Assembly (NCBI GenBank): GCA_913056395.1
Contig: CAJXMG010000002.1
Span: 17,353-81,352 of the forward strand
DNA: 64,000 nucleotides
Reading direction: 5' to 3'
From: an uncultured bacterium
GTDB lineage: Bacteria; Planctomycetota; UBA8108; UBA1146
The notes under the pieces are model-generated. The model was not told the origin of the DNA. It ran no database searches and saw nothing but the letters and a program-made list of their open reading frames with translations. The position numbers and the translations under genes were made by a program. Shown here piece after piece: positions 1 to 44,544 of this stretch (position 1 is the first letter of the stretch; each line of letters opens with the position of its first letter).

Positions 1-2
1 GT

Positions 3-467
3 GATCAGGGACCCCGTCTCGCAGGATCAGCTCAGGGAACCGATTCCAGATGGCATGAACTTTGTCGATGGGGCGTGAAATCGGAAGACTCACAGACTCA
101 TCCGGCGATGCGCACCGAATACATGGAAACCGATGCCATTGGTGTTCTGCAACATGGTGTCGAATTGGGCCTGAATACCTGGAAGAATTTTCTGGGGACC
201 CTCAATTGGAGTTCTGAGGAGGTCGACCGGACTATTTGCCACCAGGTTGGTTCGGCCCACAGACAGGAGATCCTGCCTTCTCTGGGGATCTCTCCAGAAC
301 AGGACTACATCACCTTCCCGTTTTTGGGCAACATCGGTACCGTATCGATTCCGATGACTGCCGCATTGGCCGCTGAGCGGGGAGTCCTTCTTCCCGGTCA
401 CCGCGTGGCTTTTCTGGGAATCGGAAGTGGTCTCGTTTGCAGAATGCTCGCATGGGAGTGGCGATGA
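3..467 (+). CDS. oleA: OleA (FabH-like thiolase, head-to-head acyl condensation), C-terminal part; the gene begins upstream of the window
   Basis: The frame stays open back to base 3, and the first in-frame start (GTG at 75) is only an artefact of the ORF caller. The C-terminal motifs GNIGTVSIPM and GIGSG are typical of the FabH/OleA thiolase fold. The gene is followed by oleBCD and ends in an ATGA overlap with oleB. Confidence 0.7.
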   Translation, partial: DQGPRLAGSAQGTDSRWHELCRWGVKSEDSQTHPAMRTEYMETDAIGVLQHGVELGLNTWKNFLGTLNWSSEEVDRTICHQVGSAHRQEILPSLGISPEQDYITFPFLGNIGTVSIPMTAALAAERGVLLPGHRVAFLGIGSGLVCRMLAWEWR

Positions 468-1372
468 AACAGTTCAGTTTCAGTGAAGAGTATCCTTTCA
501 CCGGTAAGTCCTGGGATCGGGGCGACGGCATTCGCCTCAACTACGTCGACGAAGGTGAAGGGGAACCGATCATCTGTGTTCACGGCAACCCCACATGGTC
601 CTTCCATTTTCGAAACATGATCCGCGGACTCTCGACCATGAATCGGGTGATCGCCATCGACCACGTGGGCTGCGGGCTATCCGACAAACCCCAACCCGAA
701 GACTACGATTACCGCCTCAACAGCAGGATCGAAGACCTCGAAGGGCTCCTCGATCACCTGGGCATCGATTCTGGTGCCACCCTGATTGCCCATGATTGGG
801 GAGGGGCCATCGGATTTGGGGTTGCGGGTCGCAACCCCGACCGCTTCAGCCATCTGGTTGCGGTCAATACGGCTGCTTTTCCACTACAGCCTGGAATGTC
901 TTTCCCACCGATCCTGGGACCGGCCAGAGGCTTTTTGGGAGAGTGGCTCATCCGCAAAGCGAATGCATTCCTCCTCGGCACTCTCTTCATAGGAGTCAAA
1001 ACACGGAAGTTTTCGCGGGCGGAAAGAGCGGGATACAAGGCTCCGTACCCAACCGCCGCTGACCGACTTGCGATTCACCGATTTGTCGAGGACATCCCTG
1101 TCAGTGCTGCGGACCCATCATGGGAAACACTGCTGCAAGTGGAACGAAACCTGGATCAATTGAAACACCTGCCCCTGTTACTTCTATGGGGAGAAAAAGA
1201 CCCAGTTTTCAACAACGACTTCCGGGATCATTGGCTCAAACTTTGGCCAGAAGCCCAGGTTCACAGCTGGCCAGAGGCCGGCCATCTTCTTCTCGACGAA
1301 TTTCCCGACAGAATCTTGCCGATCGTTCGCAAGTTCCGCACAGAACACCGGGTCCGTGGAGGAGTGGTTTGA
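464..1372 (+). CDS. oleB: OleB alpha/beta-hydrolase (haloalkane-dehalogenase-like)
   Basis: HGNPTWSFHFRNMI is the dehalogenase-like HGNPTSS motif. The ATG at 464 overlaps the oleA stop (ATGA), whereas the track start at 437 would overlap oleA by 31 nt. Confidence 0.8.
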   Translation: MKQFSFSEEYPFTGKSWDRGDGIRLNYVDEGEGEPIICVHGNPTWSFHFRNMIRGLSTMNRVIAIDHVGCGLSDKPQPEDYDYRLNSRIEDLEGLLDHLGIDSGATLIAHDWGGAIGFGVAGRNPDRFSHLVAVNTAAFPLQPGMSFPPILGPARGFLGEWLIRKANAFLLGTLFIGVKTRKFSRAERAGYKAPYPTAADRLAIHRFVEDIPVSAADPSWETLLQVERNLDQLKHLPLLLLWGEKDPVFNNDFRDHWLKLWPEAQVHSWPEAGHLLLDEFPDRILPIVRKFRTEHRVRGGVV

Positions 1373-3024
1373 CCACCGTCAATTTCTCCGTCAATCTCTC
1401 GGGGCAGCCGCAGGCAGGCGTTGATCGACGTTTGCGTGAATTTGCACTTCGATCACCGCAACAGATCGCAGTGAGGGAGTTTCGCAAGGGCCGCTGTGAA
1501 GAACGAACCTATGCAGAACTGGATGCACTGGTAGACAGAACATGCCACGCCCTCTTGCTCCGCGGAATTCGCCGGGGAATGCGCACCGTCTTGATGGTCT
1601 CACCGGGCCGGGAATTCCTCGCATGCACCTTTGCCCTGCTGAGAATTGGAGCTCCTCCCATCCTCGTCGACCCTGGGCTGGGCATCTCCGGCTTGAAATC
1701 CTGTCTGGACAGGGCTCGTCCCGAAGCTTTCGTGGGGATCGCCAAAGCCCATTGGGCAAGATTGATATTGGGTTGGGGAAGAAACACTCTTCGCCACCGC
1801 TTTGGTGTCGGCTCAGGACCTTTCCCACCGGATACGTGGAACCTCGATCAACTGAGAAAAAAAATCCCCGCCCAGGTCCCCTATGAGGGTCCCGTTCTCG
1901 GAAAAGACGAGATCGCTGCGGTTCTCTACACTTCCGGGAGCACAGGACCGGCAAAAGGGGCCATCGCCCACCATGGTCAATTGGAAGCACAGGTCGATGC
2001 CCTCGCAAAGTGCCATCGTTTGCATCCCGGTGAAGTAGATCTGCCCACCTTTCCCCTCTTTGGACTCTTCGGAGTGGCCATGGGAATGACCTCCACCGTT
2101 CCAGTGATGGACTTTACCCGGCCAGCTCATGCGGACCCGCAGCACCTCCTCGATCTGATAGAGCGCTACAATGTGACCAACCTTTTTGCTTCTCCGGCAC
2201 TTCTCGGTGCACTTTCCAGACATCTTCAAAAAACCGGGACGATTCTCCGTGGATTGAAGAGAGTGATCAGTGCAGGTGCTCCTGCACGACATGGGGCGAT
2301 CGAAACACTGAGTCAGCATCTTTCATCAGAGACATCCATCGAAACACCTTATGGAGCCACTGAAGGATTGCCTCTCTGTCATGTTCACCATGACCAGATC
2401 CTTGCAACACATGAGGCCACTTCAGCAGGAAATGGTGTCTGCATCGGTTCTGCCGTTGACGGTATCCATCTCCAGATCGTTGAACCGGGTGGAAAGCCTG
2501 ACGAGGACACCCTTCCAGAAGGTCACATCGGTGAAATCTGGGTTTCCGGTCCTACCGTCAGCAGAGGCTACCTTTTCGATGAGAAAGCGGATGCAGTCCA
2601 TAAATTTACGGATCAGAAGAACCGGATCTGGCACCGCACCGGTGATATCGGCATGAAAGATACTGACCATCAGATCTGGTTCAGGGGCCGCACCAGTCAG
2701 AGAGTGATGACCTCTCAGGGCCCCCTCGATACCGTGGCCACGGAGCGGATTTTTGAAACTCATCCCGGCGTTTTCAGAACCGCTCTCGTCGGAGTGGGAC
2801 CCTCTGGGAATCAATCTCCGATTCTCTGTGTCGAGCCAGCCCCCAATTCGAAGATCAGTCACGCCCAAATCCAACAGGATCTGTTGAAGCAAGCTGCAGA
2901 AAACCCTCTGACCCAATCTATTGAACGTATTGTCATTACAGGACCATTTCCTGTCGACATCCGACACAATGCCAAAATCCAGCGAGAGGACCTCGCACTG
3001 ATGGCAGGCAGGAAGATCTCATGA
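1369..3024 (+). CDS. oleC: OleC AMP-dependent synthetase/ligase (beta-lactone synthetase)
   Basis: AMP-binding motif LYTSGSTGPAKGA. The track ORF (from 1120) overlaps oleB by about 250 nt, and the only start after the oleB stop is a TTG at 1369 overlapping that stop, so the start is uncertain. Confidence 0.75.
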   Translation: MTTVNFSVNLSGQPQAGVDRRLREFALRSPQQIAVREFRKGRCEERTYAELDALVDRTCHALLLRGIRRGMRTVLMVSPGREFLACTFALLRIGAPPILVDPGLGISGLKSCLDRARPEAFVGIAKAHWARLILGWGRNTLRHRFGVGSGPFPPDTWNLDQLRKKIPAQVPYEGPVLGKDEIAAVLYTSGSTGPAKGAIAHHGQLEAQVDALAKCHRLHPGEVDLPTFPLFGLFGVAMGMTSTVPVMDFTRPAHADPQHLLDLIERYNVTNLFASPALLGALSRHLQKTGTILRGLKRVISAGAPARHGAIETLSQHLSSETSIETPYGATEGLPLCHVHHDQILATHEATSAGNGVCIGSAVDGIHLQIVEPGGKPDEDTLPEGHIGEIWVSGPTVSRGYLFDEKADAVHKFTDQKNRIWHRTGDIGMKDTDHQIWFRGRTSQRVMTSQGPLDTVATERIFETHPGVFRTALVGVGPSGNQSPILCVEPAPNSKISHAQIQQDLLKQAAENPLTQSIERIVITGPFPVDIRHNAKIQREDLALMAGRKIS

Positions 3025-4025
3025 AATGCTTCGTGACAGGTGCCGGTGGCTTTATCGGTGGAAACATCACCCGCCGACTCTTGAAGTTGGGGCATGAGGT
3101 CGTCACTTTTCAGCGGGGAAACTATCCCGAACTGAATAAAATGGGTGGCACTCACATTCAGGGAAGTATCACGCAAAAAGAACTGCTCATGGACGCCATG
3201 ACAGATGTCGACGCGGTTTTCCATGTTGCGGCATTGGCCGCCATCTCCGGTCCCCGCGTAGATTTCGAGCAAGCCAACGTTTTGGGTACCAGGAACATTA
3301 TCGAAGCTTGCAGGGCTAACGGCGTCCAACGCCTGATTTTTACCTCTTCCCCCAGCGTAGTCTTCGATGGCAAGGATCAGATCGGGATCGATGAATCCGA
3401 GCCTTATCCAACCAATTTCCTGGCGGATTATCCGAGAACCAAGGCCATTGCAGAGGCCGAGGTCATCGGGGCCAACAGCGATCAGCTTTGGACTGTTTCA
3501 CTCCGTCCCCATTTGGTTTGGGGGCCAGGGGATAGACACCTTTACCCACGAATCGTCGAACGTGCTCGTCAGGGAAAATTGAAACTGGTACGCCGTCAGG
3601 GAATGAAGATCGATGCGTGCTACATCGACAATGCAGTGGATGCCCATATCTGTGCTTTGGATCGAATCGCCAGCAATCCCGACTGCAGGGGAAAAGCGTT
3701 TTTTGTCTCCAACGGAGAACCCACTTCTCCAGAAGACCTGATCAACAGTTTCCTCGAATGTGCAGGGTTAAATCCGATTCGCCCAACGGTCTCTCCATTA
3801 CTGGCAAAGGTTGCCGGGTGGCTGATCGAAAATGCCTATAAATCACCATTCTTCAACGGCGAACCCCCTCTCACCCGATTCGTGGCTCATCAGCAATCCA
3901 CCAGTCACTGGTTTGACCTGTCCGCAGCCAAGCGGGATCTCGATTGGCAACCGGCGGTTTCTACCTCAGAGGGGATTGAACGACTGCGACAACACCATTC
4001 TGAAGAAGAGCCCGTCTCAACATGA
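3021..4025 (+). CDS. oleD: OleD NAD(P)-dependent epimerase/dehydratase-family reductase
   Basis: N-terminal Rossmann motif MKCFVTGAGGFIGGNI, and an ATGA overlap with the oleC stop. Confidence 0.8.
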   Translation: MKCFVTGAGGFIGGNITRRLLKLGHEVVTFQRGNYPELNKMGGTHIQGSITQKELLMDAMTDVDAVFHVAALAAISGPRVDFEQANVLGTRNIIEACRANGVQRLIFTSSPSVVFDGKDQIGIDESEPYPTNFLADYPRTKAIAEAEVIGANSDQLWTVSLRPHLVWGPGDRHLYPRIVERARQGKLKLVRRQGMKIDACYIDNAVDAHICALDRIASNPDCRGKAFFVSNGEPTSPEDLINSFLECAGLNPIRPTVSPLLAKVAGWLIENAYKSPFFNGEPPLTRFVAHQQSTSHWFDLSAAKRDLDWQPAVSTSEGIERLRQHHSEEEPVST

Positions 4026-4780
4026 ATTCATCCACTGAAGGTTTTCAAAACGAAGAACACTCGATCGTTGAGATCGATACCTGGAAATTCAACCTCAGTG
4101 GAAAACCGCACTCGCTTCAAAACCATTTGGAAAACCTCGTCGGAGAAGAAAAACAGAGGATCGAACAAGGAATATTCCCGGAATTGGGAGAACGGGCGAC
4201 CCGGTCACGTCTCGGATTGCGCTGGATCCTTGCTGACTATCTGCAGTGCAAACCTCATGAGGTGCCCTTGATCATCGGCGAACACGGAAAGCCGGAACTC
4301 GATTCAGCATCTCCTCATTTTCAAAAGCTTCACTTCAATCTGAGTCATTGTGGAGACCGGGCATTGATGGCGGTCAGTCGGGATTCAATTTTGGGAGTCG
4401 ACCTGGAACGAATTCGCCAGGAATCCCCGATCGAGGACCTCGCCCAACGTTGTTTCTCAGAAAAAGAGCAGAAAGCATGGCTGGAGTCACCGGAGGATCG
4501 GCGACGAGTGTGGTTTTTCCATCTCTGGGTTCAAAAGGAGGCGATGGTCAAGGCCCATGGAGATGGCATGACCCTTCCATTACGGCTCTTTTCAGGAAAC
4601 CCTGACGCGCAGGCTCTTGAAGGTTCGATTTCCTCTGACTTGCCAGAAATTGGCAACAATCTTTGGCGATATCATGCCGAGGACTGCTCTGGTGACCTTC
4701 GGTCAGCCATCGTTTTCCGCGGAATATCAGCCAAGATCTCGGATTGTGACCCCGAAAGTGTGGGCCTCAGTCAATGGTGA
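4022..4780 (+). CDS. Sfp-type 4'-phosphopantetheinyl transferase
   Basis: Motifs FNLSHCGD, GVDLERI (the PPTase GxD(I/L)E motif) and WVQKEAMVKAHG (W..KEA..KA). ATGA overlap with the oleD stop. Confidence 0.75.
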   Translation: MNSSTEGFQNEEHSIVEIDTWKFNLSGKPHSLQNHLENLVGEEKQRIEQGIFPELGERATRSRLGLRWILADYLQCKPHEVPLIIGEHGKPELDSASPHFQKLHFNLSHCGDRALMAVSRDSILGVDLERIRQESPIEDLAQRCFSEKEQKAWLESPEDRRRVWFFHLWVQKEAMVKAHGDGMTLPLRLFSGNPDAQALEGSISSDLPEIGNNLWRYHAEDCSGDLRSAIVFRGISAKISDCDPESVGLSQW

Positions 4781-6590
4781 TGGTCAGGACTCCCGGTCCC
4801 AATTCCGATTGCGTGAGCGAATCGAATCCCCCCACCCGAATGAAGAAGTGATCCCCCTCTGAAACAGGAATATCACTGATTCTGGAGGTCAAAAGCGGGC
4901 ATGGGTTGCCCTGCGCATCAACGCCATCTCCATTGCAGGCCTGCTGAAGCAACTGCCCGCAAGATCCGCTGTAGATCACCATATCTGAGTCAAACACCAC
5001 TTCATCAGAGCACAGTGAGAAAGTCGCATTGCCACTTGTCGGAGCAGTGAAGTCGAACCAGATGTCTGCATACATTTGCCCCAGGGATGTGGATTCACAA
5101 CCGGAATCATCAAAGGGATCGGTCGAATCTGTCATCAAAGTGGTGTCAAAATTGTTGTCTCCAAGTGTCACCGTAACAGCACTGGTACATTCATCTCCCA
5201 GGAATCCAGCCCCACAAGTGGCATCAGAACACCCCGTATCACAACCCAATGAGTCGGGAGTGGGATCAAGTCCCGCCAACGGGAAGGGTGCAGCAGGCTC
5301 TGATCCCCCCGTAAACAGGAATGCCAAGAGGTTAACGGCGTCTGAAAGATCCAGAGAAGCGTCGTCGTTAAAGTCTGCGGCAGAAGCACAGGGCATATCA
5401 CCAAATACAAACAGGTATTGCAGTAAAGTGACCGGATCAACGAGGTTGAGTTCTCCGTCACTGTCGACGTCTCCGCGTATAAAGAGCACATCAGGAATGG
5501 GCAAGAAGATCTCGCATGATTCAGAATCAGCGGTGGTTCCCGCCAACGAAGAGCGAAGGACATAATCCAGGGTGATTCCTGGAATCGGTGCTGAATCGAC
5601 AAAGCTGGTCTCGAGCGAATTCAGACTCCCGATCAAGTTGCCCTGCCTCAGAACATCCACCTGCTCGTAGGGTAATGGGTTTTCCCAAGTCAACAGAACC
5701 GTATTGGCGTTCTGGGTACAACTCAAACCTGTCGGTGTTTCAAGTTCCCCGTCAATGGAAACAACGCAAGAAACCGCCGGGGAGGTAACTCCTGAAACAA
5801 TCCCCCTCAATGAGTAGGATCTCTCGGTTCCAATCAATGCGCCTGCATCTTCGAAGTACCCCAGACCTCCGGCAATTTCTGCAATCAGGAGCCCGTCCCT
5901 GCGTATCTGAATCTGCGAATAATCCACCGGTTCCTGCCAGGTCAAGAACACAGTCTCTGAAACTTCCCCACAAGCCAAATCCGTGGGCCGCAAAACATCA
6001 CTGATTTCCAAATCCAGAGTTCCGGAAAGAGTGGGTAGTATGACCCCATTCTGATCAGTGACGATGGAACCGATCCAGCCACACGTCAGATCAGGATCTG
6101 GCGTCGAAAGTTGAACGACACCATTGGGCGCATTTCCGACGACACGAAACTCCAACTGAGCGAGAGGTGTCGTTGTCGCTGACAAATTTTCACTGAGGAT
6201 CAAACCCAGGCTGAATGCTTCCTGTGCAGTACCATCCCACCAACTTGCACAACCCTGATCACCACCGACTCCGGCAGGCTCAGGTGCATTCCAGACAAGA
6301 ATTTCGGGGTCTGGAGATCCACTCAGGGATCCGGGCAAATCAACGGACAACAATTGGAGGGAGCCGGAATCCCAGGCTATCGCATGCTGTAATCCACGAA
6401 TCGTCTCGCCAGCAGGGTTCTCCAGCGAAAGCTCCATGACAAATGACTCACCCGGTGCATAGACACTCGATGGGCTACTCAGATTCAATTCGATTTGCTG
6501 GCCCGTTGCAGCGGAAGAACATAGACAAAGGCAGAGCAAAACGAAAACAGAGCTTTGGCTAAACCCCGCAACACTTTTCTGAAATGGCAT
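4767..6590 (-). CDS. Secreted surface protein: signal peptide, cohesin-like domain, two FN3-like modules, dockerin repeats, C-terminal PPC-like domain
   Basis: N-terminal hydrophobic signal. Dockerin EF-hand-like pair FIRGDVDSDGELNLVDP / DFNDDASLDLSDAVNLL. TWQEP / TWENP FN3-like repeats. Confidence 0.65.
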   Translation of the reverse strand: MPFQKSVAGFSQSSVFVLLCLCLCSSAATGQQIELNLSSPSSVYAPGESFVMELSLENPAGETIRGLQHAIAWDSGSLQLLSVDLPGSLSGSPDPEILVWNAPEPAGVGGDQGCASWWDGTAQEAFSLGLILSENLSATTTPLAQLEFRVVGNAPNGVVQLSTPDPDLTCGWIGSIVTDQNGVILPTLSGTLDLEISDVLRPTDLACGEVSETVFLTWQEPVDYSQIQIRRDGLLIAEIAGGLGYFEDAGALIGTERSYSLRGIVSGVTSPAVSCVVSIDGELETPTGLSCTQNANTVLLTWENPLPYEQVDVLRQGNLIGSLNSLETSFVDSAPIPGITLDYVLRSSLAGTTADSESCEIFLPIPDVLFIRGDVDSDGELNLVDPVTLLQYLFVFGDMPCASAADFNDDASLDLSDAVNLLAFLFTGGSEPAAPFPLAGLDPTPDSLGCDTGCSDATCGAGFLGDECTSAVTVTLGDNNFDTTLMTDSTDPFDDSGCESTSLGQMYADIWFDFTAPTSGNATFSLCSDEVVFDSDMVIYSGSCGQLLQQACNGDGVDAQGNPCPLLTSRISDIPVSEGDHFFIRVGGFDSLTQSELGPGVLTITID

Positions 6591-6681
6591 GTTGAACCCC
6601 TCCGAGATCCCAAATAACCGTATGGTTCAAGGATATCACCGGGGCTAAATTTTCCTCTTCAGGAAATCGTGAATCCCGAAA

Positions 6682-8937
6682 TCAGGTCAAAGTATTGAGT
6701 GCGGCACCCGCCCAAAACCACTTCACCTGACTTTCGCTACAGGTGTGACTGCAAACAGCACGATCTTCTGAACCATCCTGATGACGGAAAACAGCCGTTA
6801 AAGTGCTGCCGGGAGCCAAATTTTCCAATCCCTCAATGGAGACCACATCGCCCTGGAGAACCTTGTCATAATCGGCAGGATCCTGGAATCGAAGCGGCAA
6901 AATTCCCTGCTTTTTCAGATTTGTTTCATGAATCCGGGCGAAGGATCGAACGATGACCGCGCCACAACCCATGAATCGGGGACACATGGCTGCATGCTCA
7001 CGACTCGACCCCTCACCATAGTTCTCATCGCCAACCACAGCCCAGAAGTGACCGGAATCCCTGAGGGAAGCTGCAATTTCGTGCAACGGTTTGCTGCTCC
7101 CTGTTTCAGGATCTTTTCCAAGTCCAGGACTCTCATGAAATGCATTGACCGCACCCAGGAACATGTTTCGAGAGATATTTTCCAAGTGGCCACGGAACTT
7201 CAGCCATGGGCCTGCGGGTGAGATATGGTCAGTGGTGCACTTGCCATTTGCCTTGAACAAAAGAGGCATATCCACCAGTTGTTCAGCCTCACGCGGTTTG
7301 AAAGGCTTCAACAATTGAAGCCGCTCACTGTTTTCTGCGACATCCACCACCACTGAGTTTCCGGACTCTGGTGGAGCAACATATCCCTCCGAATCGGTCA
7401 CGAAACCCTGATCAGGAAGGCTGTCCCCTTCCGGAATCGGAAGTTTGATTTCCTCACCGCTCTCGGTCGTGACCGTATCGGTAATCGGATTGAAATCGAG
7501 GGTTCCTGCGATCGCAAATGCCGTCACCAGATCTGGGCTGGCAATAAAGGAAAGGGTTTGTGCATTTCCGTCATTACGCCCCGGAAAATTCCGATTGAAC
7601 GAGCTGACGATACTGTTGGATGTCCCCTTTTCCATGTCATCCCTTTGCCACTGACCAATGCACGGGCCGCAAGCGTTGGCGAGTACTGTCCCCCCCAGAT
7701 TCTCAAAGATACCTGCCTGACCATCACGCTCGACTGTCTTGAAGACCTGCGTCGAACCGGGAGAAACCAGAAACTGGCTTTTTGCCTTGAGACCGGCCTT
7801 GACCGCTTCGTCAGCGATGGAAGAGGCCCTGTCCATGTCTTCATAGGATGAGTTCGTGCAGGATCCGATGAGAGCGGCGCTGATTTCCAACGGCCAGCCA
7901 TTCTCTTTTGCCTCAGCGCCCAATGCGGACACGGGTCTTGCCCGGTCTGGTGAATGTGGGCCGACAACATGGGGCTCGAGTGAATCGAGGTCGATCTCAA
8001 GAATCTGGTCGTAAAACTGCGCAGGGTTTTCTTCAACCTCTGCGTCGGGAGCAAGTAGATCCGCGTGGTCCCGGGCCAGAGACGCGAGGTCTGCCCTGCC
8101 TGTCGACTCGAGGTAAAGTGCCATCGCATCGTCAAATGGGAACACTGAGCATGTCGCTCCGATTTCGGCGCCCATGTTGGTAATCGTGGCCTTGCCTGTA
8201 CAGGAAATGGAGCGAGCACCATCTCCGATGTACTCAACGATGGCACCTGTACCACCCTTGACTGTCAGCTCTCCCGCAACTTTGAGGATGACGTCTTTGG
8301 CTGAAGTCCAGCCACCCAGTTTTCCCTTGAGGTGCACCGCGATGGCTCCTGGCCATTTGACGTTCCAGGGCAATCCTGCCATCACGTCAACGGCGTCAGC
8401 TCCACCCACTCCGACAGCCAGCATTCCCAGTCCGCCCGCGTTAGGAGTGTGACTGTCGGTACCAATCATCAATCCGCCAGGGAAAGCATAATTCTCGAGA
8501 ACGACCTGATGGATAATCCCGGAACCCGGTTTCCAAAAACCGATACCGTACTTTTCTGAGGACGAACGAAGGAATCGGTAAACTTCTGCGTTGACCTCTT
8601 CCGCAGCAGCAAGATCAGTTTGAGCCTCATGTCTTGCCTGGATCAGGTGATCACAGTGCACCGTGGAAGGGACCTGAACCTGGTCCAGTCCAGCCTGCAT
8701 GAACTGAAGAATCGCCATCTGGGCTGTCGCATCTTGCATCGCCACCCTGTCCGGGCGCAAATCACAGTAATCCTGACGACGCTCAGGTACGGAAGTCAGA
8801 GTCTCCTCATTCACCTCGAGGTGCGAAAACAGGATTTTTTCAGCAAGGGTCAAACCCCTTCCCAAAACCTGTCGAGCCTGGTCGTGGCGTTGACGTGCAT
8901 TTTCGTAAAGCCCACGAATCGCATGAATATCCGTCAT
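6682..8937 (-). CDS. acn: Aconitate hydratase (mitochondrial-type aconitase family, ~750 aa)
   Basis: GTDSHTPNAGGLG and SCTNSSYEDM are aconitase signatures. The start was moved to the second Met (MTDIHAIRG). Confidence 0.85.
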   Translation of the reverse strand: MTDIHAIRGLYENARQRHDQARQVLGRGLTLAEKILFSHLEVNEETLTSVPERRQDYCDLRPDRVAMQDATAQMAILQFMQAGLDQVQVPSTVHCDHLIQARHEAQTDLAAAEEVNAEVYRFLRSSSEKYGIGFWKPGSGIIHQVVLENYAFPGGLMIGTDSHTPNAGGLGMLAVGVGGADAVDVMAGLPWNVKWPGAIAVHLKGKLGGWTSAKDVILKVAGELTVKGGTGAIVEYIGDGARSISCTGKATITNMGAEIGATCSVFPFDDAMALYLESTGRADLASLARDHADLLAPDAEVEENPAQFYDQILEIDLDSLEPHVVGPHSPDRARPVSALGAEAKENGWPLEISAALIGSCTNSSYEDMDRASSIADEAVKAGLKAKSQFLVSPGSTQVFKTVERDGQAGIFENLGGTVLANACGPCIGQWQRDDMEKGTSNSIVSSFNRNFPGRNDGNAQTLSFIASPDLVTAFAIAGTLDFNPITDTVTTESGEEIKLPIPEGDSLPDQGFVTDSEGYVAPPESGNSVVVDVAENSERLQLLKPFKPREAEQLVDMPLLFKANGKCTTDHISPAGPWLKFRGHLENISRNMFLGAVNAFHESPGLGKDPETGSSKPLHEIAASLRDSGHFWAVVGDENYGEGSSREHAAMCPRFMGCGAVIVRSFARIHETNLKKQGILPLRFQDPADYDKVLQGDVVSIEGLENLAPGSTLTAVFRHQDGSEDRAVCSHTCSESQVKWFWAGAALNTLT

Positions 8938-9150
8938 TTCAGCACTCCTGCATCCCACTTGAGACGTTTCCCTGAGGGGGTATCATCTACTCTGGTCAAT
9001 GTTTATTGATCTATTCAAACATTGTGATCGTATCCCATGATGTGTTTTCAAGGGAGTGATTCCAAACGTCGATTTGTTGACAAAGTGCCCGCCTCAACGC
9101 ACCGAAGTCGCCCAGCGACGAGGTTTGTCAGGGAAAGAGGACTCTTGAGA

Positions 9151-9999
9151 GTGACGAGTCAAATCGAAGCGGGTAACGTCCGAAAAATTGCCCAAATCGT
9201 ATACCTTCTAACAGTGCTCCTTTTGATCAGCCCTACACTGACCGGCCAAACAACGACTCTCGGAATCGGCGATGTCACCGCACAGCCAGGTGACCCGGTT
9301 TCGATCCCGGTGTTGGCTGACTGGAATGGTCAGATCGCAGGATTCAGTTTCTCCCTCGAATTTTCGGGGCCCTCTCCCTTTCCAATATCTGCCATGACGA
9401 TTGATGTGGAAGGCACTCTTGCGGGAGCCATCGAGGCGGAATACGTTCAGGCCCAGATCGATTTTTCTACGAGCACCATCATTTGTGGTGTCCTCTTTGA
9501 TGCTCTTCCGCCATTCAACGGCCAGACTCTGCCTTCTTTGGGGTACGCTCAGGAAGTTGCATTTATTCATGGCTCGATCCTGTCAACGGCTGTGGAGTCA
9601 ACGATTCAATTCAATCCACAGGACGGATTTGGATCTCCACCCATTAACAACATGCTGGTTTTTGGAACAACTTCAGTACCTGTAGAATCCTTGTATCCGG
9701 GGATTCTCGAGATTGAACTGCCCCCGGTTCCTCAACTGTTCATCCGTGGAGACGTCAACATGGATTCCGTTGTCGATCTTGCCGACGTGATTTTTCATCT
9801 CGATTACACTTTCCTCTCAGGACCACTCCCCAGTTGCATGGATGCAGGGGATGCCAATGACGACGGTGTTTCCGACGTCTCTGATGCCATTTTCTTACTC
9901 TATTGGTTCTTTTTGGACGGGCCCGGCCCCTGGATTCCGTTCCCGAATCCAGGAGAGGATTTCACCAATGACAATCTGGATTGCGCACAAGGGCTTTAG
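9151..9999 (+). CDS. Secreted cohesin-like plus dockerin protein
   Basis: Cohesin-like VSIPVLADWNGQIAGFSFSLEF. Dockerin FIRGDVNMDSVVDLADV...DANDDGVSDVSDAIFLLY. GTG start at 9151 preceded by AAGAGGA, and the track ATG at 9037 is the alternative. Confidence 0.6.
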   Translation: MTSQIEAGNVRKIAQIVYLLTVLLLISPTLTGQTTTLGIGDVTAQPGDPVSIPVLADWNGQIAGFSFSLEFSGPSPFPISAMTIDVEGTLAGAIEAEYVQAQIDFSTSTIICGVLFDALPPFNGQTLPSLGYAQEVAFIHGSILSTAVESTIQFNPQDGFGSPPINNMLVFGTTSVPVESLYPGILEIELPPVPQLFIRGDVNMDSVVDLADVIFHLDYTFLSGPLPSCMDAGDANDDGVSDVSDAIFLLYWFFLDGPGPWIPFPNPGEDFTNDNLDCAQGL

Positions 10000-10024
10000 T
10001 TAGATTTTCAATTACAATTAAAAA

Positions 10025-10058
10025 GCCCCGGCATGGGTTCCATGCCGAGGCTTTTTTT
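10025..10058. terminator. Bidirectional rho-independent terminator between convergent genes
   Basis: Stem gccccggcatgg / ccatgccgaggc (12 bp, one mismatch), loop gtt, flanked by TTTTTTT on the plus strand and AAAA on the other. Confidence 0.7.
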
Positions 10059-10076
10059 CAGTACTTATTCGGAGTA

Positions 10077-11042
10077 TCAGCTCAAATCTCGGAAGAGATC
10101 CAAAAAGCGATCTTCGTATAACTTAAAAACTCCCAAACGATCCAACTCCGCTTTCAGAAGTGGAGTCTGACTCCGATCAAATTTGGCTCTGGAAAAAAAG
10201 TTTTCCAGTTCATCGATTTCACCTTTGGTGAGATTTCGCTCTGTTGCTGAATCGTACTCTTGTCCCTCTGACTCAAAATGAAACCCATTTTCTGAATCCC
10301 AGGGCTCCCCAGACTCATGAGAAAATGCATCTCGCAATGCAGCCATCTTCTCTTCAAGAGCCAAGATCTGACCATTCAAATGATCGAAATTGAGGCGGAT
10401 CGACATCAAAGAACAAAATGTTTTTAGCAGGGCGCGTGTCGCTTTCGGATTGGGTGAGTGGAGTCCCCAAACAGGAATCTCTGAAACCAGGCAAGTGCCT
10501 TTTAAACCCATTTCCTGTGCCGCAAGCAGAATGAGACCGTTCAATCCCACAACACGCTCAGATCGAAGAGGAGGTATACCCGCTTTCGCCAATTCTTCGC
10601 CACTGTGGAAATCAGTGGTCCCAAATCGAACGACAGGCTCATCTTCCGGCTCCAAAATGCCTGAGACTGCTGCGAAGGTCATCACTGCTTGAATCCCAAA
10701 GGTAGACATTGCGGTCCTGATGACAGACCTCGCCAAATCCAATGGTTTATCAAGAGTCTGGGTATCAGGAATGAATAGGATCAACTCCTGATTCGCAGCC
10801 GAACGAACCCTCTGAAAAATCAGCTTTGGAAGGTTCCCCTGAAAAATCAGGCCATTTCTGATCTGAATATCTTCCAACTCAAAATGCGGATCAGGGTTGA
10901 GGGCGGAAACACTTTCAGACTGAAGTCCCTGAGAGAGTGCCCTGACACAGGAAGAGGCAACCCCTCCCAATCCAGGCCAACCCACAACCAAAATAGGTGC
11001 ATTCTTTGATTTGGAGGGTTCTCCAAACGAAAAATCGCTCAT
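10077..11042 (-). CDS. PAC2-family protein (proteasome-assembly-chaperone-like fold)
   Basis: N-terminal PILVVGWPGLGGVASS resembles bacterial PAC2-family proteins. Confidence 0.45.
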   Translation of the reverse strand: MSDFSFGEPSKSKNAPILVVGWPGLGGVASSCVRALSQGLQSESVSALNPDPHFELEDIQIRNGLIFQGNLPKLIFQRVRSAANQELILFIPDTQTLDKPLDLARSVIRTAMSTFGIQAVMTFAAVSGILEPEDEPVVRFGTTDFHSGEELAKAGIPPLRSERVVGLNGLILLAAQEMGLKGTCLVSEIPVWGLHSPNPKATRALLKTFCSLMSIRLNFDHLNGQILALEEKMAALRDAFSHESGEPWDSENGFHFESEGQEYDSATERNLTKGEIDELENFFSRAKFDRSQTPLLKAELDRLGVFKLYEDRFLDLFRDLS

Positions 11043-11226
11043 AAGTAACCTTATATATCGTCACTTCGAATTAAATAAAGTGGACAAGTGGGGCCAATTG
11101 CCCCTCTGCCACCTAGATAGTAACCCTTCGGAGCCTTATTTCAAATCATCGATCAGTCCAACGGTCAATAACACGATTAGAACACATATGACAGGTTTGT
11201 CAGTTTAGACAGGCCAACTATCAGCT

Positions 11227-12075
11227 TCACCAATTCATGCTCAGGATGACCAAAAGCACCCAAAGAGGAATAATCCAACGTGGCCATATTGATTTGAGAA
11301 CGACTTCCACCGGATCTCTTCCCCGTTCATGAACGACCAGTTCCCTGAAGTAGAGGATCAATCCGAATGCAACAACGATAACACTCCACCACCAGCTCTC
11401 GGATTTGAACAGATCTGAGTTCATGCAATACCACAGATAGGTGATCCAGCAAGCCGCCATCGTCAGAGCAAGACTACGTGCGAGCACAGACCGAGAGTAC
11501 CCTGCCAGACTCGGGCGATAATCAGGTCCATACCCCCGAGCCAACTCCGAATACCTCTTCCCCAACGCCAAGTTCAATGCCAGCAAAAAGCCGGTTACGT
11601 ATAACATCCCACTGGCTTTGACCAGTACCAGAGAGCAACCCAATGTGAGTCGGACCAGAAAGAAACTTGCCAGAAACAGGACATCCAACCACGGCTTGGA
11701 ACGGGCCCATACGGTATAGAGGATGTTTCCGGCAAGATATGCACCACCGAGTAACCATGTTTCCGGAGCAAAAGGTGATAGTAGTCCGGGAATAGAGAGA
11801 AGGGCCAGTCCTGACAGAGAGACGAATGCCCCCCAAATGGAAGCCCTCCCTGGCGAGATGAGTCCTGCAGCCACCGCCCGCTGACTCTTGCTCGGATGCA
11901 ACTGGTCATTATGGCGATCATGAATGTCATTGAAAATATACACCCCTGAACTCAACAGGGAAAAACCAAGGATTCCAAGAGTCAAATTGATCGGATCCGG
12001 ATCCCCGCCGGAGGCCATGGCAAATGGCAAGGGCAAGAGAATGAAGAGACTCTTGATCCAATGCGTGAGTCGCAT
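11227..12075 (-). CDS. UbiA-family prenyltransferase resembling decaprenyl-phosphate phosphoribosyltransferase (DPPRS, Rv3806c-like)
   Basis: NDIHDRHNDQLHPSKSQRAVAAG matches the NDxxDxxxD...HPxK..RPxAAG core of DPPRS, and several transmembrane helices are present. The start was moved to MRLTHW because the track start at 12288 would overlap the divergent queG. Confidence 0.65.
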   Translation of the reverse strand: MRLTHWIKSLFILLPLPFAMASGGDPDPINLTLGILGFSLLSSGVYIFNDIHDRHNDQLHPSKSQRAVAAGLISPGRASIWGAFVSLSGLALLSIPGLLSPFAPETWLLGGAYLAGNILYTVWARSKPWLDVLFLASFFLVRLTLGCSLVLVKASGMLYVTGFLLALNLALGKRYSELARGYGPDYRPSLAGYSRSVLARSLALTMAACWITYLWYCMNSDLFKSESWWWSVIVVAFGLILYFRELVVHERGRDPVEVVLKSIWPRWIIPLWVLLVILSMNW

Positions 12076-12198
12076 CAATCCAATGTAGGGTCCCAAACTG
12101 AAAGACCGAGAATCGGAGTCTGCTTGTGGCTCAGAAACACCTGTCAAAATCAGGCTCTCCCTTCTCCAAAACGGCTCTATCTCGGTTACCATTCCTGA

Positions 12199-13167
12199 AT
12201 GGAAGAGCCCATGATACCCGCAACGGATACCGGTGAAAATTCCGAGCTCGCTGACATCAATGCCGCTGCTCTCAAAATCGGCTTTCACTCAGTGGGAGTT
12301 GCCAGAGCCGGTGAGTCACCCCATGCCGACCGCTTTCGCCAGTGGGTTGATCAGGGCATGCACGCAGGCATGAAATGGATGCAATCCAACAAGGAAAGAC
12401 GCTGCGATCCCACCCTTACAGTCGATGGCGCACAAAGCGTTATCATGGTCACCTTGCCCTACCCTGACGACCCGGAGCTTTCCGAGGGAGCACCCAAAAT
12501 CGCCAGATATGCCCGCGGCCGGGATTATCACAAAGTGATGAAACCGATGCTCAAGGCCCTCTGCGAGGCTGTTTCCCAGAATGGAAAATGGCAAACGTGG
12601 TACTGCGTCGATTCCTCTCCAATTCTGGAACGGGATTGGGCTGAACTTTCTGGTTTGGGCTGGATTGGTAAAAATGGCCTGATCATCGACGAGAAATTCG
12701 GCAGTTGGTTCTTTTTGGGAGGAATCGTCACCGATCGTCCTTTGCCTACGACTTCACCGGTGACTGACCGCTGTGGTACCTGCACCCGCTGCCTCGACGC
12801 TTGCCCCACTTCTGCAATCGTTGAACCCCGCACGGTCGATGCACGGAAATGCATCTCCTACTGGACCATCGAACACCGAGGCGAGTTTCCAGAAAATATA
12901 AAATTACATGGCTGGCTATTCGGGTGTGATATTTGCCAAGAGGTCTGTCCCTGGAATCATCGCCCTGTCCGCATCAAATCCCGAGTTCATTCAGACCTGA
13001 AACCTGGAAAATCCGTTGCCTCTTGCAAGGATGTTCTCAATCTCGACAGGGATGGATTTCTGAACATATACGCGGGAACCCCCCTCACGCGCACAGGCCT
13101 GGAGGGATTGCAGAGAAATGCCCAACGTATTCTCCAGGAGAGCAACCGGGAAGAAGACCGAACTTGA
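12199..13167 (+). CDS. queG: Epoxyqueuosine reductase QueG
   Basis: CGTCTRCLDACPTSAI and FGCDICQEVCPWN ferredoxin motifs plus the YWTIEHRG region. Confidence 0.85.
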   Translation: MEEPMIPATDTGENSELADINAAALKIGFHSVGVARAGESPHADRFRQWVDQGMHAGMKWMQSNKERRCDPTLTVDGAQSVIMVTLPYPDDPELSEGAPKIARYARGRDYHKVMKPMLKALCEAVSQNGKWQTWYCVDSSPILERDWAELSGLGWIGKNGLIIDEKFGSWFFLGGIVTDRPLPTTSPVTDRCGTCTRCLDACPTSAIVEPRTVDARKCISYWTIEHRGEFPENIKLHGWLFGCDICQEVCPWNHRPVRIKSRVHSDLKPGKSVASCKDVLNLDRDGFLNIYAGTPLTRTGLEGLQRNAQRILQESNREEDRT

Positions 13168-13205
13168 GATCCCTGAGTTCTCCCAGCCAACTCTTCAATG
13201 GCACG

Positions 13206-13733
13206 ATGACCACTCATGGGCTGATTGCCCTGGTGTCCGTCACCTTTCTGCTGGGCCTGAATGGTCCTCAATATTTTCTGATTGACTCTTTTCCCCACCT
13301 GTTTCAGTCGTTGTTTTTGGGAGCACTGGCCGGAGCTGCACTCCAGGTTGTGCAATGGCTGGCGCGAAAGACCCTTCGTGCCATCCGTAACTTGAGTGCC
13401 TTGCTGGAAACACAATTTGAGGGTTGGACATTACGGGAGATTTTCTTCGTCGCATTGATCTCCTCCATCTCGGAAGAGTTACTCTTCAGAGCTCTGATAC
13501 AGCCCTACCTCGGCTTGTGGTTGACCAGTGTCATCTTCGGACTGGCACACTGGACCGGTGTCAGGGAACTTCGTATCTGGGTACCGCTGGCGATTCTCGG
13601 TGGACTTTTTCTCGGTGTACTTGCGGAGTCTTCCCGGTTCGGAATCCCTGGCAGCGTTGCCGCACATTTCACCATTAACCTGACCAGCCTCTGGATTCTC
13701 ACCCATAAACCAGGAAGCCCGGAAACTTCTTGA
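13206..13733 (+). CDS. CPBP-family intramembrane metalloprotease (CAAX protease / Abi)
   Basis: EELLFRALIQPYL (EExxxR) and FGLAHW motifs. The start was moved to MTTHG just after the queG stop. Confidence 0.7.
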   Translation: MTTHGLIALVSVTFLLGLNGPQYFLIDSFPHLFQSLFLGALAGAALQVVQWLARKTLRAIRNLSALLETQFEGWTLREIFFVALISSISEELLFRALIQPYLGLWLTSVIFGLAHWTGVRELRIWVPLAILGGLFLGVLAESSRFGIPGSVAAHFTINLTSLWILTHKPGSPETS

Positions 13734-13744
13734 TACCACCGACA

Positions 13745-13780
13745 ATCCGCTTGGCTCTCTGAAGCGGATTATTTATGTAA
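13745..13780 (+). terminator. Candidate intrinsic terminator after the CPBP gene
   Basis: atccgctt ... aagcggat, an 8-bp stem with a 9-nt loop, followed by a T-rich attatttatgtaattt. Confidence 0.4.
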
Positions 13781-13924
13781 TTTGCCCTGATTCCGTGGAT
13801 ATCAAGGGTTAATCGGTCGCTTGACTCCCCTCAATTTTGAATGGATGATGCCGATTGGCTGACACGTTTCTTTCGGAACAAAGTTGAGCCGGGCTTTTCT
13901 TGAGGAGGGAATGGGGGAGGATTT

Positions 13925-14323
13925 ATGGTCATCAAGCGCATCGACCCTGACAAGGCTCACGATCTGTTGCAGTCCGATCAGGGATTCCAATATCTCGATG
14001 TTCGCATGCCTGAGGAATTTGCCGAAGGTCATGTCCCTGATTCGACCAACATTCCCATCATGATCCGTGGAGATGGAGGCGTCGGCCTGCGAATGAACCC
14101 CGAGTTCGTCGATTGCGTCGAAGCAGAATTCCAGCCAGACACCAAGATCATTCTCGGATGTCAAAAGGGGGGTCGCTCTCAAAAGGCGGCGGATCTTCTC
14201 TCCGAAAAAGGGTTCAGCAATCTGCATGACATGCGCGGGGGATATGTAGGTGAAACTGATGTGCTCGGGAACATCACCTTTCCAGGCTGGAACTCCCGAG
14301 GGTTGCCCACCACTCGAAAATGA
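13925..14323 (+). CDS. Single-domain rhodanese-like sulfurtransferase
   Basis: Active-site loop CQKGGRS (CxxGxR) and rhodanese fold signatures. Confidence 0.75.
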   Translation: MVIKRIDPDKAHDLLQSDQGFQYLDVRMPEEFAEGHVPDSTNIPIMIRGDGGVGLRMNPEFVDCVEAEFQPDTKIILGCQKGGRSQKAADLLSEKGFSNLHDMRGGYVGETDVLGNITFPGWNSRGLPTTRK

Positions 14324-14350
14324 TCGTTCACTGAGAATTCTCCACGAATC

Positions 14351-15160
14351 TCAGGCGTCACATTCTCCAGCCTGATGGCCAGGTGAAAGTATTTTCGAGA
14401 ACATCTTTCTGGAAACGATTCCAACCAACCAGCGAGGGGCGAACCTTACCAGAAAAAGCAGCATGCGGTTTCGCCAGCCAGCGACCACAACTCCTCGGTC
14501 ACTCAACAGGCCCCTAATTGCTTCGCCCGCGACATCTTCGGGACTCATCTGCCCTGCCCTAATGTGGTCTTCAGATATTCCTGCCGTCTTGAAAAAGGAA
14601 GTTTGTGTTACCCCGGGTGCCAAAAGCAGAATCCTGATCGGTTGATCCTTCATTTCCCAATTCAGACTTTCCGCAAAACGATTTACGAATCCCTTGGTAC
14701 CGCTATAGGCTGCCATTCCCGGACCACCCGCATAGCCGATCAAGGATCCGACCAGAAGGATAAAGCCTCTTTCTCGGTCCTTCATCGATTGGAGAAGAGT
14801 ATGACTCAAGCGGGTCAATGCCTGACAGTTGAGATAGATCATTCGATCCTGATCCTCCACTGACAGGTCCTCGAATCTCCCCCCCAGACCGACTCCGGCA
14901 TTGTTGACGAGACCGTCAACATCTTCGCCTGAGATTTCTGACAACAGTTGATCAACTCCTTCGGAGGTCGCCAAATCCGCGACTACCAGGCGGCATGGAA
15001 CCTTGCAGCGCTGTGCCGTCTCCTCCAGTCGACTCTTGTTACGCCCTGCGAGAATCAGGGATCCTGCCCCATTTTGAGCCAACTTGACTGCCAACTCCGC
15101 TCCGATCCCATCACTGGCCCCGGTGACCAGCACATTCATTCCTGAAAGATATGAAGACAT
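14351..15160 (-). CDS. SDR-family oxidoreductase
   Basis: VLVTGASDGIG (TGxxxGIG cofactor motif). The start is uncertain, either MSSY at 15160 or MNVL at 15139. Confidence 0.75.
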   Translation of the reverse strand: MSSYLSGMNVLVTGASDGIGAELAVKLAQNGAGSLILAGRNKSRLEETAQRCKVPCRLVVADLATSEGVDQLLSEISGEDVDGLVNNAGVGLGGRFEDLSVEDQDRMIYLNCQALTRLSHTLLQSMKDRERGFILLVGSLIGYAGGPGMAAYSGTKGFVNRFAESLNWEMKDQPIRILLLAPGVTQTSFFKTAGISEDHIRAGQMSPEDVAGEAIRGLLSDRGVVVAGWRNRMLLFLVRFAPRWLVGIVSRKMFSKILSPGHQAGECDA

Positions 15161-22092: not shown

Positions 22093-22104
22093 GCTGATCC
22101 CTCC

Positions 22105-23628: not shown

Positions 23629-23765
23629 GGGGTTGAATTTACCCTTGGGAAGGCCCAGAGGCCATCAGTACGGACCGTCTTGACGGGGAACTTTTCAGCC
23701 TGCAAGTTCAGGCCTTGTCAGTTCCTGACACTTCAGGCGTAAATCTGGAGGAGGGAGGAAACCCC

Positions 23766-29500: not shown

Positions 29501-29686
29501 GATTTCAAAACTGATACTCTGGCCAGGGACTCTGCGGATCTGATCGAAAAGTATCAGGAGCAGATGCAAAAGTATCGCCAGGCAGTACACAGTGGCTGGG
29601 GGATCCCCATCGAGAACATCGATTTGAAAATCGCCCATATCAACTCAGGTACGTTCTCTTCAGTGGACGATTCCAGACGGCCCTGA
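26546..29686 (+). CDS. addA: AddA/RecB-like UvrD-family helicase with C-terminal PD-(D/E)XK nuclease
   Basis: Walker A ASAGSGKTYALT, UvrD-type helicase motifs, and the C-terminal nuclease GIIDRMV...LIDFKTD. ATGA overlap with addB. Confidence 0.75.
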   Translation: MSFPYHRMIRASAGSGKTYALTTRYLGLILCGESADSILAVTFTRTAAGEIMERILDRLLKALEPEGLSDLIHALKLEGFTQLVSELEASSQDDAIRNRIEPALTQMLSVLHKCQVSTLDAFFSRIATGFTYECDLSPGWQILDEEALNKIRTGAIQKILEEEGTREARQLMHRLNKGKLSSQVAADLDRLVSDFHEKWREFPKNAWELPADCSGPNPADLERAWETVLRFECPKDKAGKKKRKHWENGLRTLQEVWGEDLLTRIAACEKGLLSKVIQGERIFDRVEIDDDLFDAIQTFLEQLGSEYSALIRTQNQSTGEFLQKYDIERSRGLKEQGGLNYSDVPVALLQARILGQMGLVDDRMDASVRHLLLDEFQDTSLIQFAVLDPLIDELAADSAGGRSIFCVGDSKQAIYGWRGGRAEVMDLFEQKLLPGSEQRFDESWRSSAPILECVNQTFGDLSSAAPESEDQPAVDKWSTLFDEHRVAAPRAPQESGHVILRIAHEHDGKSSKICPYLDTLAEVERLQSLSPNGTIAILVRKNQQISHLVNALKAKGIEASEERGNPLTDSPAVGRLIALLEWIEHPGDSTLGLAVERSPLSSILKKDPASPWRTTLDELRDRIYSEGLPEVFSPICDELAKVCSEEDQLRIQQFMEQLRSIGFHGLRLADLIEGLRNRSVPRPGGSPVQVMTIHQAKGLEFDAVILPELDFRWLQVIPGLLTLEDEFQPVHLSRYVGKKHLSLVGDPYPQMYQQNRDQRLTEALCLLYVAMTRAKHTLIMLLPTPPKKGAYSSDSYASLLVQKLAPGAELSAGNVLYEIGEPVRLSATGENSERTRVQLSQRRPQPNSLRERTSRASGKAGHLTAPRRKALKLGNLAHHLLEQCQWSEVSGDTAMASLKARFPREESIHEEAVTLVCEAFTKGPFADLFDEDLTRQRLGCGKVDQIVVEAEVPILTRIGDRDFHGIIDRMVLRKVGNGVVSAELIDFKTDTLARDSADLIEKYQEQMQKYRQAVHSGWGIPIENIDLKIAHINSGTFSSVDDSRRP

Positions 29687-38574: not shown

Positions 38575-38575
38575 C

Positions 38576-40117: not shown

Positions 40118-40168
40118 CGATTACCTCGGTTTCAATACTTCCTCCGCAGTGCGGGTGGAAGGTTTAGC

Positions 40169-44216: not shown

Positions 44217-44544
44217 ATGCTTGGCTCTTTCCTCATAAGTCGTTGCCCTCGCAACGACTCGGCGCTCTTTCACACTGATTCGATCAAAGTCACGCACTGC
44301 TGCGGTTCACAAGCCTGCACCCGGACACAGCCGTTCAGCAGACGCGTTATTACTGCGGGCAGACTGCACTCCTGCCAGATGGCAAAACTCCCCCGTTATC
44401 AGGGAGTAGGTCCACCACCTGTGGAAGCCGGTACACAGACCGGTGTCTCTCACGTCAAACAATCAGGGCTGATCGCGCGGGGATTCCCCCCAGTTCGCTG
44501 AATACCCCTGCTGAAATCGTCTATCTCAATTCCCCCACCTCTGG

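Follow-up and report, generated by a model that had tools for sequence, protein, structure and literature searches.

The oleABCD and phosphopantetheinyl transferase genes of an uncultured planctomycete as the probable 3′ end of a single pfa-ole operon

That pfa, ole, and pfaE genes can lie linked in genomes is already on record (PMC3098273; PMC6463001), and the Pfa-dependent formation of the C31:9 polyolefin and a direct hand-off between OleA and ACP, the latter as a proposal, are likewise published. In Shewanella oneidensis MR-1, pfaEABCD together with oleABCD leads to hentriacontanonaene (C31:9), with the PfaE-activated Pfa synthase feeding polyunsaturated acyl chains to OleABCD (PMC3098273; PMC6463001). 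The pfa and ole genes of Shewanella lie at separate loci, with pfaB as a gene of its own and pfaD located after pfaC. In Photobacterium profundum SS9, pfa and ole are adjacent on the chromosome (PMC6463001), where the thioesterase gene pfaT stands between the two operons and an EntD-like enzyme acts as the PPTase. In the published linked pfa-ole clusters, ole is often linked, the proposed product is C31:9, and a nearby PPTase carries the P0, P1a, and P1b motifs of the PUFA type (PMC3098273), which read hRxhLS, x(G/D)xP, and (F/S)NxSH, respectively (PMC3098273).

The stretch of DNA analysed here, referred to as the window, is 64 kb long (64,000 nucleotides). The locus at its left end is an ordinary member of these described hydrocarbon gene clusters in an uncultured Planctomycetota host, because its PPTase is very probably the PfaE of a Pfa synthase encoded just upstream, beyond the window edge. 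Window positions 1-4780 very probably represent the 3′ end of a tightly packed eight-gene operon, in which the PPTase would serve the Pfa half and not the Ole enzymes. The enzyme set is the same as in Shewanella and so is the logic of the pathway, while the arrangement differs from that of Shewanella in being a single operon that opens with pfaD, has pfaB and pfaC fused as pfaBC, and closes with pfaE. Like SS9, the locus has pfa and ole side by side, but they are separated by a gap of only 2 nt with no intervening gene, and the unit contains no pfaT-like gene. Compared with the published linked clusters, it resides in an uncultured Planctomycetota lineage and forms one overlapping eight-gene unit, with the PPTase at the 3′ terminus after oleD. 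It adds an example from uncultured Planctomycetota of pfaD-pfaA-pfaBC-oleABCD-pfaE fully fused into one probable operon.

Table 1. Features at the left end of the window, with window positions
Feature	Position	Strand	Evidence or remark
oleA, 3′ part (head-to-head condensing thiolase)	1..467	+	PF08541 E 2.4e-15; PRK09258 model positions 200-338 matched
oleB (haloalkane-dehalogenase-like alpha/beta hydrolase; Ole-pathway beta-lactone decarboxylase)	464..1372	+	PF00561 E 5e-28
oleC (AMP-dependent beta-lactone synthetase)	1369..3024	+	TTG start overlapping oleB stop; PF00501 E 1.6e-49
oleD (NAD(P)H-dependent 2-alkyl-3-oxoalkanoate reductase, extended SDR)	3021..4025	+	PF01073 E 5.7e-51
pfaE-type Sfp-family 4′-phosphopantetheinyl transferase, last operon gene	4022..4780	+	PF01648, PF22624 above cut-offs
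Next gene after PPTase, convergent	4767-6590	-	

The genes of the window are listed in Table 1. A preliminary description, made from the window letters alone, had named oleB, oleC, oleD, and an Sfp-type PPTase (464-4780, + strand), and the domain and model matches support these identities, less firmly for oleD. It had also reported ATGA- or TTGA-type overlaps at every junction; indeed, four overlaps of 4 nt are present, ATGA at 464-467, TTGA at 1369-1372, ATGA at 3021-3024, and ATGA at 4022-4025. The same gene starts were picked by an independent gene caller on a near-identical metagenome contig, ENA ERZ27241904 k141_82741 (locus L087). The OleA called complete in that description is truncated: the window holds only the last 154 codons of oleA (codons 197-350, window 3-467) and its stop, in frame from base 3, while the initial 586 nt of the gene, which encode the region of the catalytic Cys, fall beyond the left edge. 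OleA residues 197-350 in the window include the HQV and GNIG regions. The full oleA on L087 (16927-17979, 350 aa) scores 392.7 bits against PRK09258 (cut-off 285), and its product best matches, among PDB entries, Xanthomonas OleA (3ROW, E 7e-49), with which it shares the NAC Cys and the EP(S/A)TA Glu. Only the full L087 gene shows all the residues expected of an OleA thiolase, namely the Cys, His, and Asn of the active site plus the Glu specific to OleA.

OleB carries the HDWGG nucleophile motif, and its best matches in NCBIfam and the PDB are haloalkane dehalogenases, the libraries searched containing no OleB-specific model; the gene is assigned as oleB by these features together with its position between oleA and oleC, with a 4-nt overlap on each side. 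OleC is identified by PRK09274 (578.4 bits, above the cut-off of 478), followed by the olefin beta-lactone synthetase models NF045785 (484 bits) and NF045786 (480 bits), both under their species-narrow cut-offs of 850 and 900. The top two NCBIfam matches of OleD are the OleD models NF042423 (376.6 bits) and NF042422 (364.8 bits), both under the cut-off of 580, and the assignment is also backed by the position of the gene and its 4-nt coupling. OleC and OleD show only moderate identity to the Shewanella-type models and score under the narrow equivalog cut-offs for Shewanella and Xanthomonas.

The PPTase matches PF01648 with 58.6 bits (cut-off 25), the check that had been suggested for this fifth gene, and PF22624 with 37.9 bits (cut-off 27), identifying the PPTase superfamily domain and an N-terminal half of the Sfp type. 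Its best PDB match is Sfp (1QR0, E 4e-15) and its best NCBIfam match is HetI. It shares PF22624, PF01648, GVDxE, and WxxKEAxxK with the group II PPTases Sfp (Bacillus subtilis) and HetI (Nostoc); its score with the HetI model, about 110 bits, falls well short of the cut-off of 370, so it is not a HetI orthologue. The motifs found are LRWILA, HGKP, FNLSH, GVDLE, and WVQKEAMVK. Among them, HGKP at residues 88-91 corresponds to P1a and FNLSH at 105-109 to P1b, as in PUFA-type PPTases, and 13 PPTases linked to ole genes, drawn from two phyla, conserve both motifs. LRWILA is a near-match to P0, with Ala where the consensus has Ser, a position at which relatives have S or A. Judged by its context, the PPTase would belong with the PfaE-type enzymes.

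No pfa, PKS, or NRPS genes and no ORF of >1100 aa were found within the 64-kb window, where one divergent FabF-like ORF (46407-48020) is the sole further ketosynthase; with no ACP-dependent synthase in the window, the answer had to be sought outside it. The contig ERZ27241904 k141_82741 is 99.95% identical to window positions 1-14780, with 8 differing positions, none of them within 1-4780. It comes from another sample, and the pfa genes upstream of window base 1 were read on it and are inferred for the window. On this contig, pfaD, pfaA, and pfaBC directly precede oleA, giving the gene order pfaD, pfaA, pfaBC, oleA, oleB, oleC, oleD, and pfaE (the PPTase) with junction gaps of -1, -4, +2, -4, -4, -4, and -4 nt. 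The unit, of about 21.3 kb, is bounded by a 155-nt gap upstream of pfaD (L087) and by the convergent gene 3′ of the PPTase. Since the window starts within oleA, positions 1-4780, which had been taken for the whole operon, cover its 3′ quarter. When the operon and its 3′ end were scanned for sigma-70 promoter and intrinsic terminator consensus sequences, the hits equalled or fell short of the number expected from shuffling, and the sigma-70 scan found no promoter-like site on the + strand in 20 kb; these scans were uninformative, so co-transcription is argued solely from the overlapping junctions.

The genes upstream of oleA on L087 encode a Pfa synthase resembling Type I of Shulse & Allen. PfaD, the enoyl reductase (ER), matches TIGR02814 (pfaD_fam) with 571.4 bits (cut-off 449). 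PfaA has the KS-MAT-5xACP-KR-DH architecture and matches TIGR02813 (omega_3_PfaA) with 1521 bits (cut-off 1010); KS, AT, KR, and PS-DH domains and five PP-binding stretches were found in it. PfaBC, a fusion of PfaC with a PfaB-type AT, is organized as KS-CLF-AT-DH-DH: ketoacyl-synt matches in two stretches, and DH domains of the FabA type are recognized by Pfam FabA (262 bits) and by NCBIfam fabA, the latter also in two stretches. Its AT domain is divergent compared with the published linked clusters: the Pfam AT model stays under threshold (E 0.14; 0.0045 on the excised region), although GHSLG is intact at residues 1079-1083, and residues 993-1290 match pfaB_fam with 69.8 bits, under the cut-off of 144. 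Loss of the AT was considered and rejected on the pfaB_fam match and on the alignment of GHSLG and VHC with homologues whose AT is above threshold in Pfam.

These results indicate how the pathway may operate. Going by its family and context, the PPTase would move 4′-phosphopantetheine from CoA onto its expected substrates, the ACP domains that PfaA carries as five tandem copies, thereby switching on the Pfa synthase; it could serve other carrier proteins of the genome as well. The Pfa synthase would then make a polyunsaturated acyl chain, which in Shewanella is a 16:4 intermediate, and OleA would join two such chains head to head. Reduction by OleD, beta-lactone closure by OleC, and decarboxylation by OleB would follow, yielding a long polyunsaturated hydrocarbon. 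Judging by homologous systems, this hydrocarbon would most likely be similar to hentriacontanonaene (C31:9). Among related planctomycetes, n-C31:9 occurs in the Gemmataceae (PMC7534041). The preliminary description had treated the PPTase as an oddity on a carrier-free pathway, and the main value of the present analysis is to correct this: with five ACPs on PfaA, the PPTase appears as the last gene (pfaE) of the pfa-ole operon and the normal activator of the Pfa synthase that feeds the Ole enzymes. The same description had supposed that an ACP-dependent, Pfa-type synthase supplies Ole, which holds, and had placed it elsewhere in the genome, which does not, as pfaD-pfaA-pfaBC adjoin oleA on the 99.95%-identical contig. 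The compact unit offers a handy single piece for heterologous polyolefin production or for testing the direct use of acyl-ACP by OleA.

The first impression of oleABCD plus the PPTase as a self-contained five-gene operon, with the PPTase serving an ACP-dependent synthase elsewhere in the genome, agrees with the lack of pfa and PKS genes in the 64-kb window. The operon seems to stand alone, with its PPTase unexplained, because the window begins inside oleA; the near-identical contig has pfaD, pfaA, and pfaBC before oleA, and the same arrangement recurs in every Planctomycetota relative sampled, so that this explanation is hardly tenable and in effect refuted. It is possible, but rather doubtful, that the PPTase is kept beside ole because OleA takes its substrates from holo-ACP and not from acyl-CoA, which would make phosphopantetheinylation part of the Ole step. 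In E. coli without FadD, OleA still made a 31:8 ketone from Pfa products, and a direct interaction between OleA and the PfaA ACPs was proposed from this result (PMC6463001). The L087 operon agrees with such a hand-off in having neither a thioesterase nor an acyl-CoA ligase gene between pfaBC and oleA, and no PfaT-type thioesterase was found anywhere within it, but a PfaT-type enzyme could be encoded elsewhere. The position of the gene does not discriminate, as PfaA needs a PPTase with or without docking of OleA to the ACP, and the OleA enzymes that have been solved and assayed use acyl-CoA in vitro. A broader proposal combines direct unloading of the PfaA holo-ACPs by OleA with a Pfa synthase that has no fatty-acid or phospholipid output, the eight genes together forming a dedicated, horizontally mobile polyolefin cassette. 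Taken jointly, these claims are unlikely; if true, the cassette would be conserved from Planctomycetota to uncultured Gammaproteobacteria and would involve no thioesterase or acyl-CoA step, and the 3′-terminal PPTase would functionally be an Ole-pathway gene.

Sfp-type PPTases are often promiscuous, and the enzyme might accordingly be a general one for all PKS, NRPS, and other carriers, its place after oleD being a historical accident. EntD of E. coli is reported to be able to stand in for PfaE (PMC2901515). Against such a general role, which we consider quite unlikely, stand the 4-nt overlap that couples the PPTase gene to oleD and the retention of the PfaE-specific P1a and P1b motifs instead of the GSIxH or hShxH motif of the PKS/NRPS type (PMC3098273). 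The place after oleD is moreover conserved over two phyla. Among the GTDB species-representative genomes, 27 loci show oleABCD after pfaBC with 500 nt or more of sequence past oleD, and the PPTase lies immediately 3′ of oleD in 23 of them (8 Planctomycetota and 15 MAGs mostly labelled Gammaproteobacteria), by which a chance adjacency of the PPTase was also rejected. Assignment of the PPTase to the Pfa synthase of its own operon is consistent with this conservation, and the gene order is also unchanged where the PPTase of a relative shares just 43% identity. The remaining four loci have no PPTase right after oleD (two Geobacter, which in this respect differ from the present locus, one Uabimicrobium, and one unclassified), indicating that the position is common but not obligatory. 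The PfaBC query recovered homologues from Geobacter and Desulfuromonas, and the names of the related MAGs suggest that they are marine.

On its plus strand, the interval 1-4780 of the window carries four whole genes and one truncated gene, as established from the ORF list and the sequence. The genes overlap by 4 nt at all four junctions (gcgATGAaa at 464-467, gtTTGAcc at 1369-1372, tcATGAaa at 3021-3024, and acATGAat at 4022-4025). The oleA gene is present from codon 197 of 350, and its catalytic Cys lies off the window; the preliminary description of a complete oleABCD set coupled to a PPTase gene therefore holds for the genes and their overlaps, but not for a whole oleA. The next gene (4767-6590, minus strand) is convergent with the PPTase gene, and the unit therefore ends with its fifth gene.

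Features of the pfa-ole unit in the window and on the near-identical contig (locus L087)
Feature	Coordinates	Strand	Basis
oleA, 3' fragment	window edge to 467	+	PF08541; PRK09258 model positions 200-338; FabH/OleA-type thiolase C-terminus
oleB	window 464-1372	+	haloalkane-dehalogenase-like alpha/beta hydrolase; HDWGG motif
oleC	window 1369-3024 (TTG start)	+	PRK09274 578 bits (cut-off 478); both olefin beta-lactone synthetase models rank next
oleD	window 3021-4025	+	top matches are two 2-alkyl-3-oxoalkanoate reductase (OleD) models, under their narrow cut-offs
PPTase	window 4022-4780	+	PF01648 and PF22624 over cut-off; top NCBIfam match HetI; nearest solved relative Sfp
pfaD	L087 988-2676		TIGR02814 571 bits (cut-off 449)
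pfaA	L087 2676-10004		2442 aa; TIGR02813 1521 bits (cut-off 1010); KS, MAT, five PP-binding domains, KR, PS-DH
pfaBC	L087 10001-16924		2307 aa fusion; KS, CLF, PfaB-like AT with intact GHSLG, FabA-type DH domains
oleA, full gene	L087 16927-17979		PRK09258 393 bits (cut-off 285)
oleB, oleC, oleD	L087 17976-21537		match window copies
PPTase	L087 21534-22292		matches window copy

Exact copies of the PPTase sequence occur on three metagenome contigs, the longest being ENA ERZ27241904 k141_82741 (96.9 kb), which carries the locus L087. Over window 1-14780, this contig shows just 8 differing positions, with none in 1-4780, and therefore represents the population of the window (window position = L087 position - 17512). 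From pfaD through the PPTase gene, the junction gaps on L087 are -1, -4, +2, -4, -4, -4, and -4 nt, and a 155-nt non-coding gap lies 5' of pfaD. Given this gene order and these junctions, the window carries the last 4.8 kb of an approximately 21.3-kb unit of eight genes, pfaD-pfaA-pfaBC-oleA-oleB-oleC-oleD-PPTase. The proposal that an ACP-dependent synthase elsewhere in the genome feeds the Ole enzymes is supported with regard to a Pfa synthase feeding Ole, but not with regard to its place: on L087 the synthase is adjacent, upstream in the same operon, and the apparent anomaly of the PPTase therefore disappears. The AT domain of PfaBC (L087 12977-13870, residues 993-1290) falls under the Pfam Acyl_transf_1 threshold in this Planctomycetota clade, with the GHSLG serine and a downstream VHC histidine retained; in more distant PfaBC homologues, the domain passes.

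To classify the PPTase, we compared its motifs with those given for PUFA-associated PPTases by Shulse and Allen, namely P0 (hRxhLS), P1a (x(G/D)xP), and P1b ((F/S)NxSH), the last being replaced by hShxH in PKS/NRPS-type PPTases (PMC3098273). The window protein has LRWILA at P0, with Ala replacing Ser, HGKP at P1a, and FNLSH at P1b, together with the general motifs GVDLE and WVQKEAMVK. Thirteen ole-linked PPTases of other genomes were aligned with it: the P1b, GVDxE, and KEA motifs occur in all 14 sequences, and the GKP core of P1a in 11. Its P1a and P1b motifs assign the window PPTase to the PfaE type.

The unit itself shows its genes with their order, coupling, and domain make-up, and the motif type of the PPTase; the pathway steps are predicted from protein families. 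The PPTase would turn the five apo-ACP domains of PfaA into the holo form, and the Pfa synthase would build polyunsaturated acyl chains, two of which OleA would join by condensation. The resulting beta-keto acid would be converted via beta-hydroxy acid and beta-lactone to a cis-olefin by OleD, OleC, and OleB. A polyunsaturated hydrocarbon of the C31:9 type is the probable product, because Ole-made C31:9 needs Pfa in Shewanella, Geobacter bemidjiensis also makes C31:9 (PMC3098273), the planctomycete family Gemmataceae is characterized by n-C31:9 (PMC7534041), and Gemmata, Singulisphaera, Zavarzinella, and Urbifossiella homologues were among the matches to the PfaBC query. On the strength of experiments with fadD-deleted E. 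coli, direct hand-off from ACP to OleA has been proposed (PMC6463001); the gene order here is compatible with either this route or acyl-CoA supply and does not decide between them.

In other Planctomycetota MAGs, with PPTase relatives down to 43% identity, the layout pfaBC, oleA, oleB, oleC, oleD, PPTase is retained, followed 3' by a shared convergent neighbour and an aconitase gene. A scan with the CLF region of PfaBC, using one genome per species, recovered 80 loci, onto which nine proteins were mapped by tblastn and the PPTase by HMM; pfaD-pfaA lay upstream of pfaBC wherever the 5' side was covered. Twenty-seven loci were informative (pfaBC then oleABCD, with at least 500 nt of sequence past oleD), and in 23 of them a PPTase ORF comes immediately 3' of oleD (8 Planctomycetota and 15 MAGs mostly labelled Gammaproteobacteria), so the adjacency is conserved rather than a product of chance. 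The other four are two loci of Geobacter, one of Candidatus Uabimicrobium, and one of an unclassified MAG. Gene clusters in which pfa, ole, and pfaE are linked are already described (PMC3098273; PMC6463001). Associated PPTases lie directly near the synthase in most types, Type I included (PMC3098273), and the pfaBC fusion and 5' pfaD of our unit agree with a Type I-like layout. The possibly new points are modest: the uncultured Planctomycetota lineage, the joining of all genes into a single overlapping unit, and the repeated placement of pfaE at the 3' end.

Several MAG records titled 'uncultured Enterobacteriaceae' or 'Klebsiella pneumoniae' (loci L020, L022, L028, L033, L034, and L085) carry the pfa-ole-PPTase cluster as in MAGs labelled Gammaproteobacteria, and their taxonomic labels look unreliable. 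In Schlesneria MAGs (L044, L056, L070, and L073), no oleA comes after the PfaBC gene, and an oleD-like gene sits on the opposite strand some 4 kb further downstream, indicating that the pfa-ole linkage is differently arranged within Planctomycetota.

Several window ORFs of 400-600 aa had no family match. They include four long ORFs of 425-607 aa, at 4767-6590, 42888-44297, 61170-62552 (minus strand), and 62394-63671 (plus strand), with essentially no Pfam/NCBIfam match; the first, the convergent neighbour whose overlap with the PPTase stop is 14 nt, is syntenic in related MAGs and has a marginal match to a galactose-binding-like domain. At 46407-48020 (plus strand), outside the pfa-ole unit, the C-terminal ~270 residues of a 537-aa ORF weakly match FabF-type ketoacyl-ACP synthase (124 bits, cut-off 494), with no family match for the N-terminal ~260 residues; the ORF either encodes a divergent stand-alone KS or has a mis-set start. 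A molybdopterin oxidoreductase with a 4Fe-4S/NrfD membrane partner (19258-23628, minus strand) and an AddAB-like PD-(D/E)XK nuclease with a UvrD-type helicase (23715-29686, plus strand) look like ordinary housekeeping genes. At 31888-42888 (minus strand) lies a head-to-tail array of seven ORFs (468, 439, 437, 932 [double domain], 513, 509, and 397 aa), an unusual local expansion of paralogues in which six match the amidohydrolase superfamily (PF01979/PF07969) and the seventh (41695-42888) shows only a faint PhnM-like C-terminal match.
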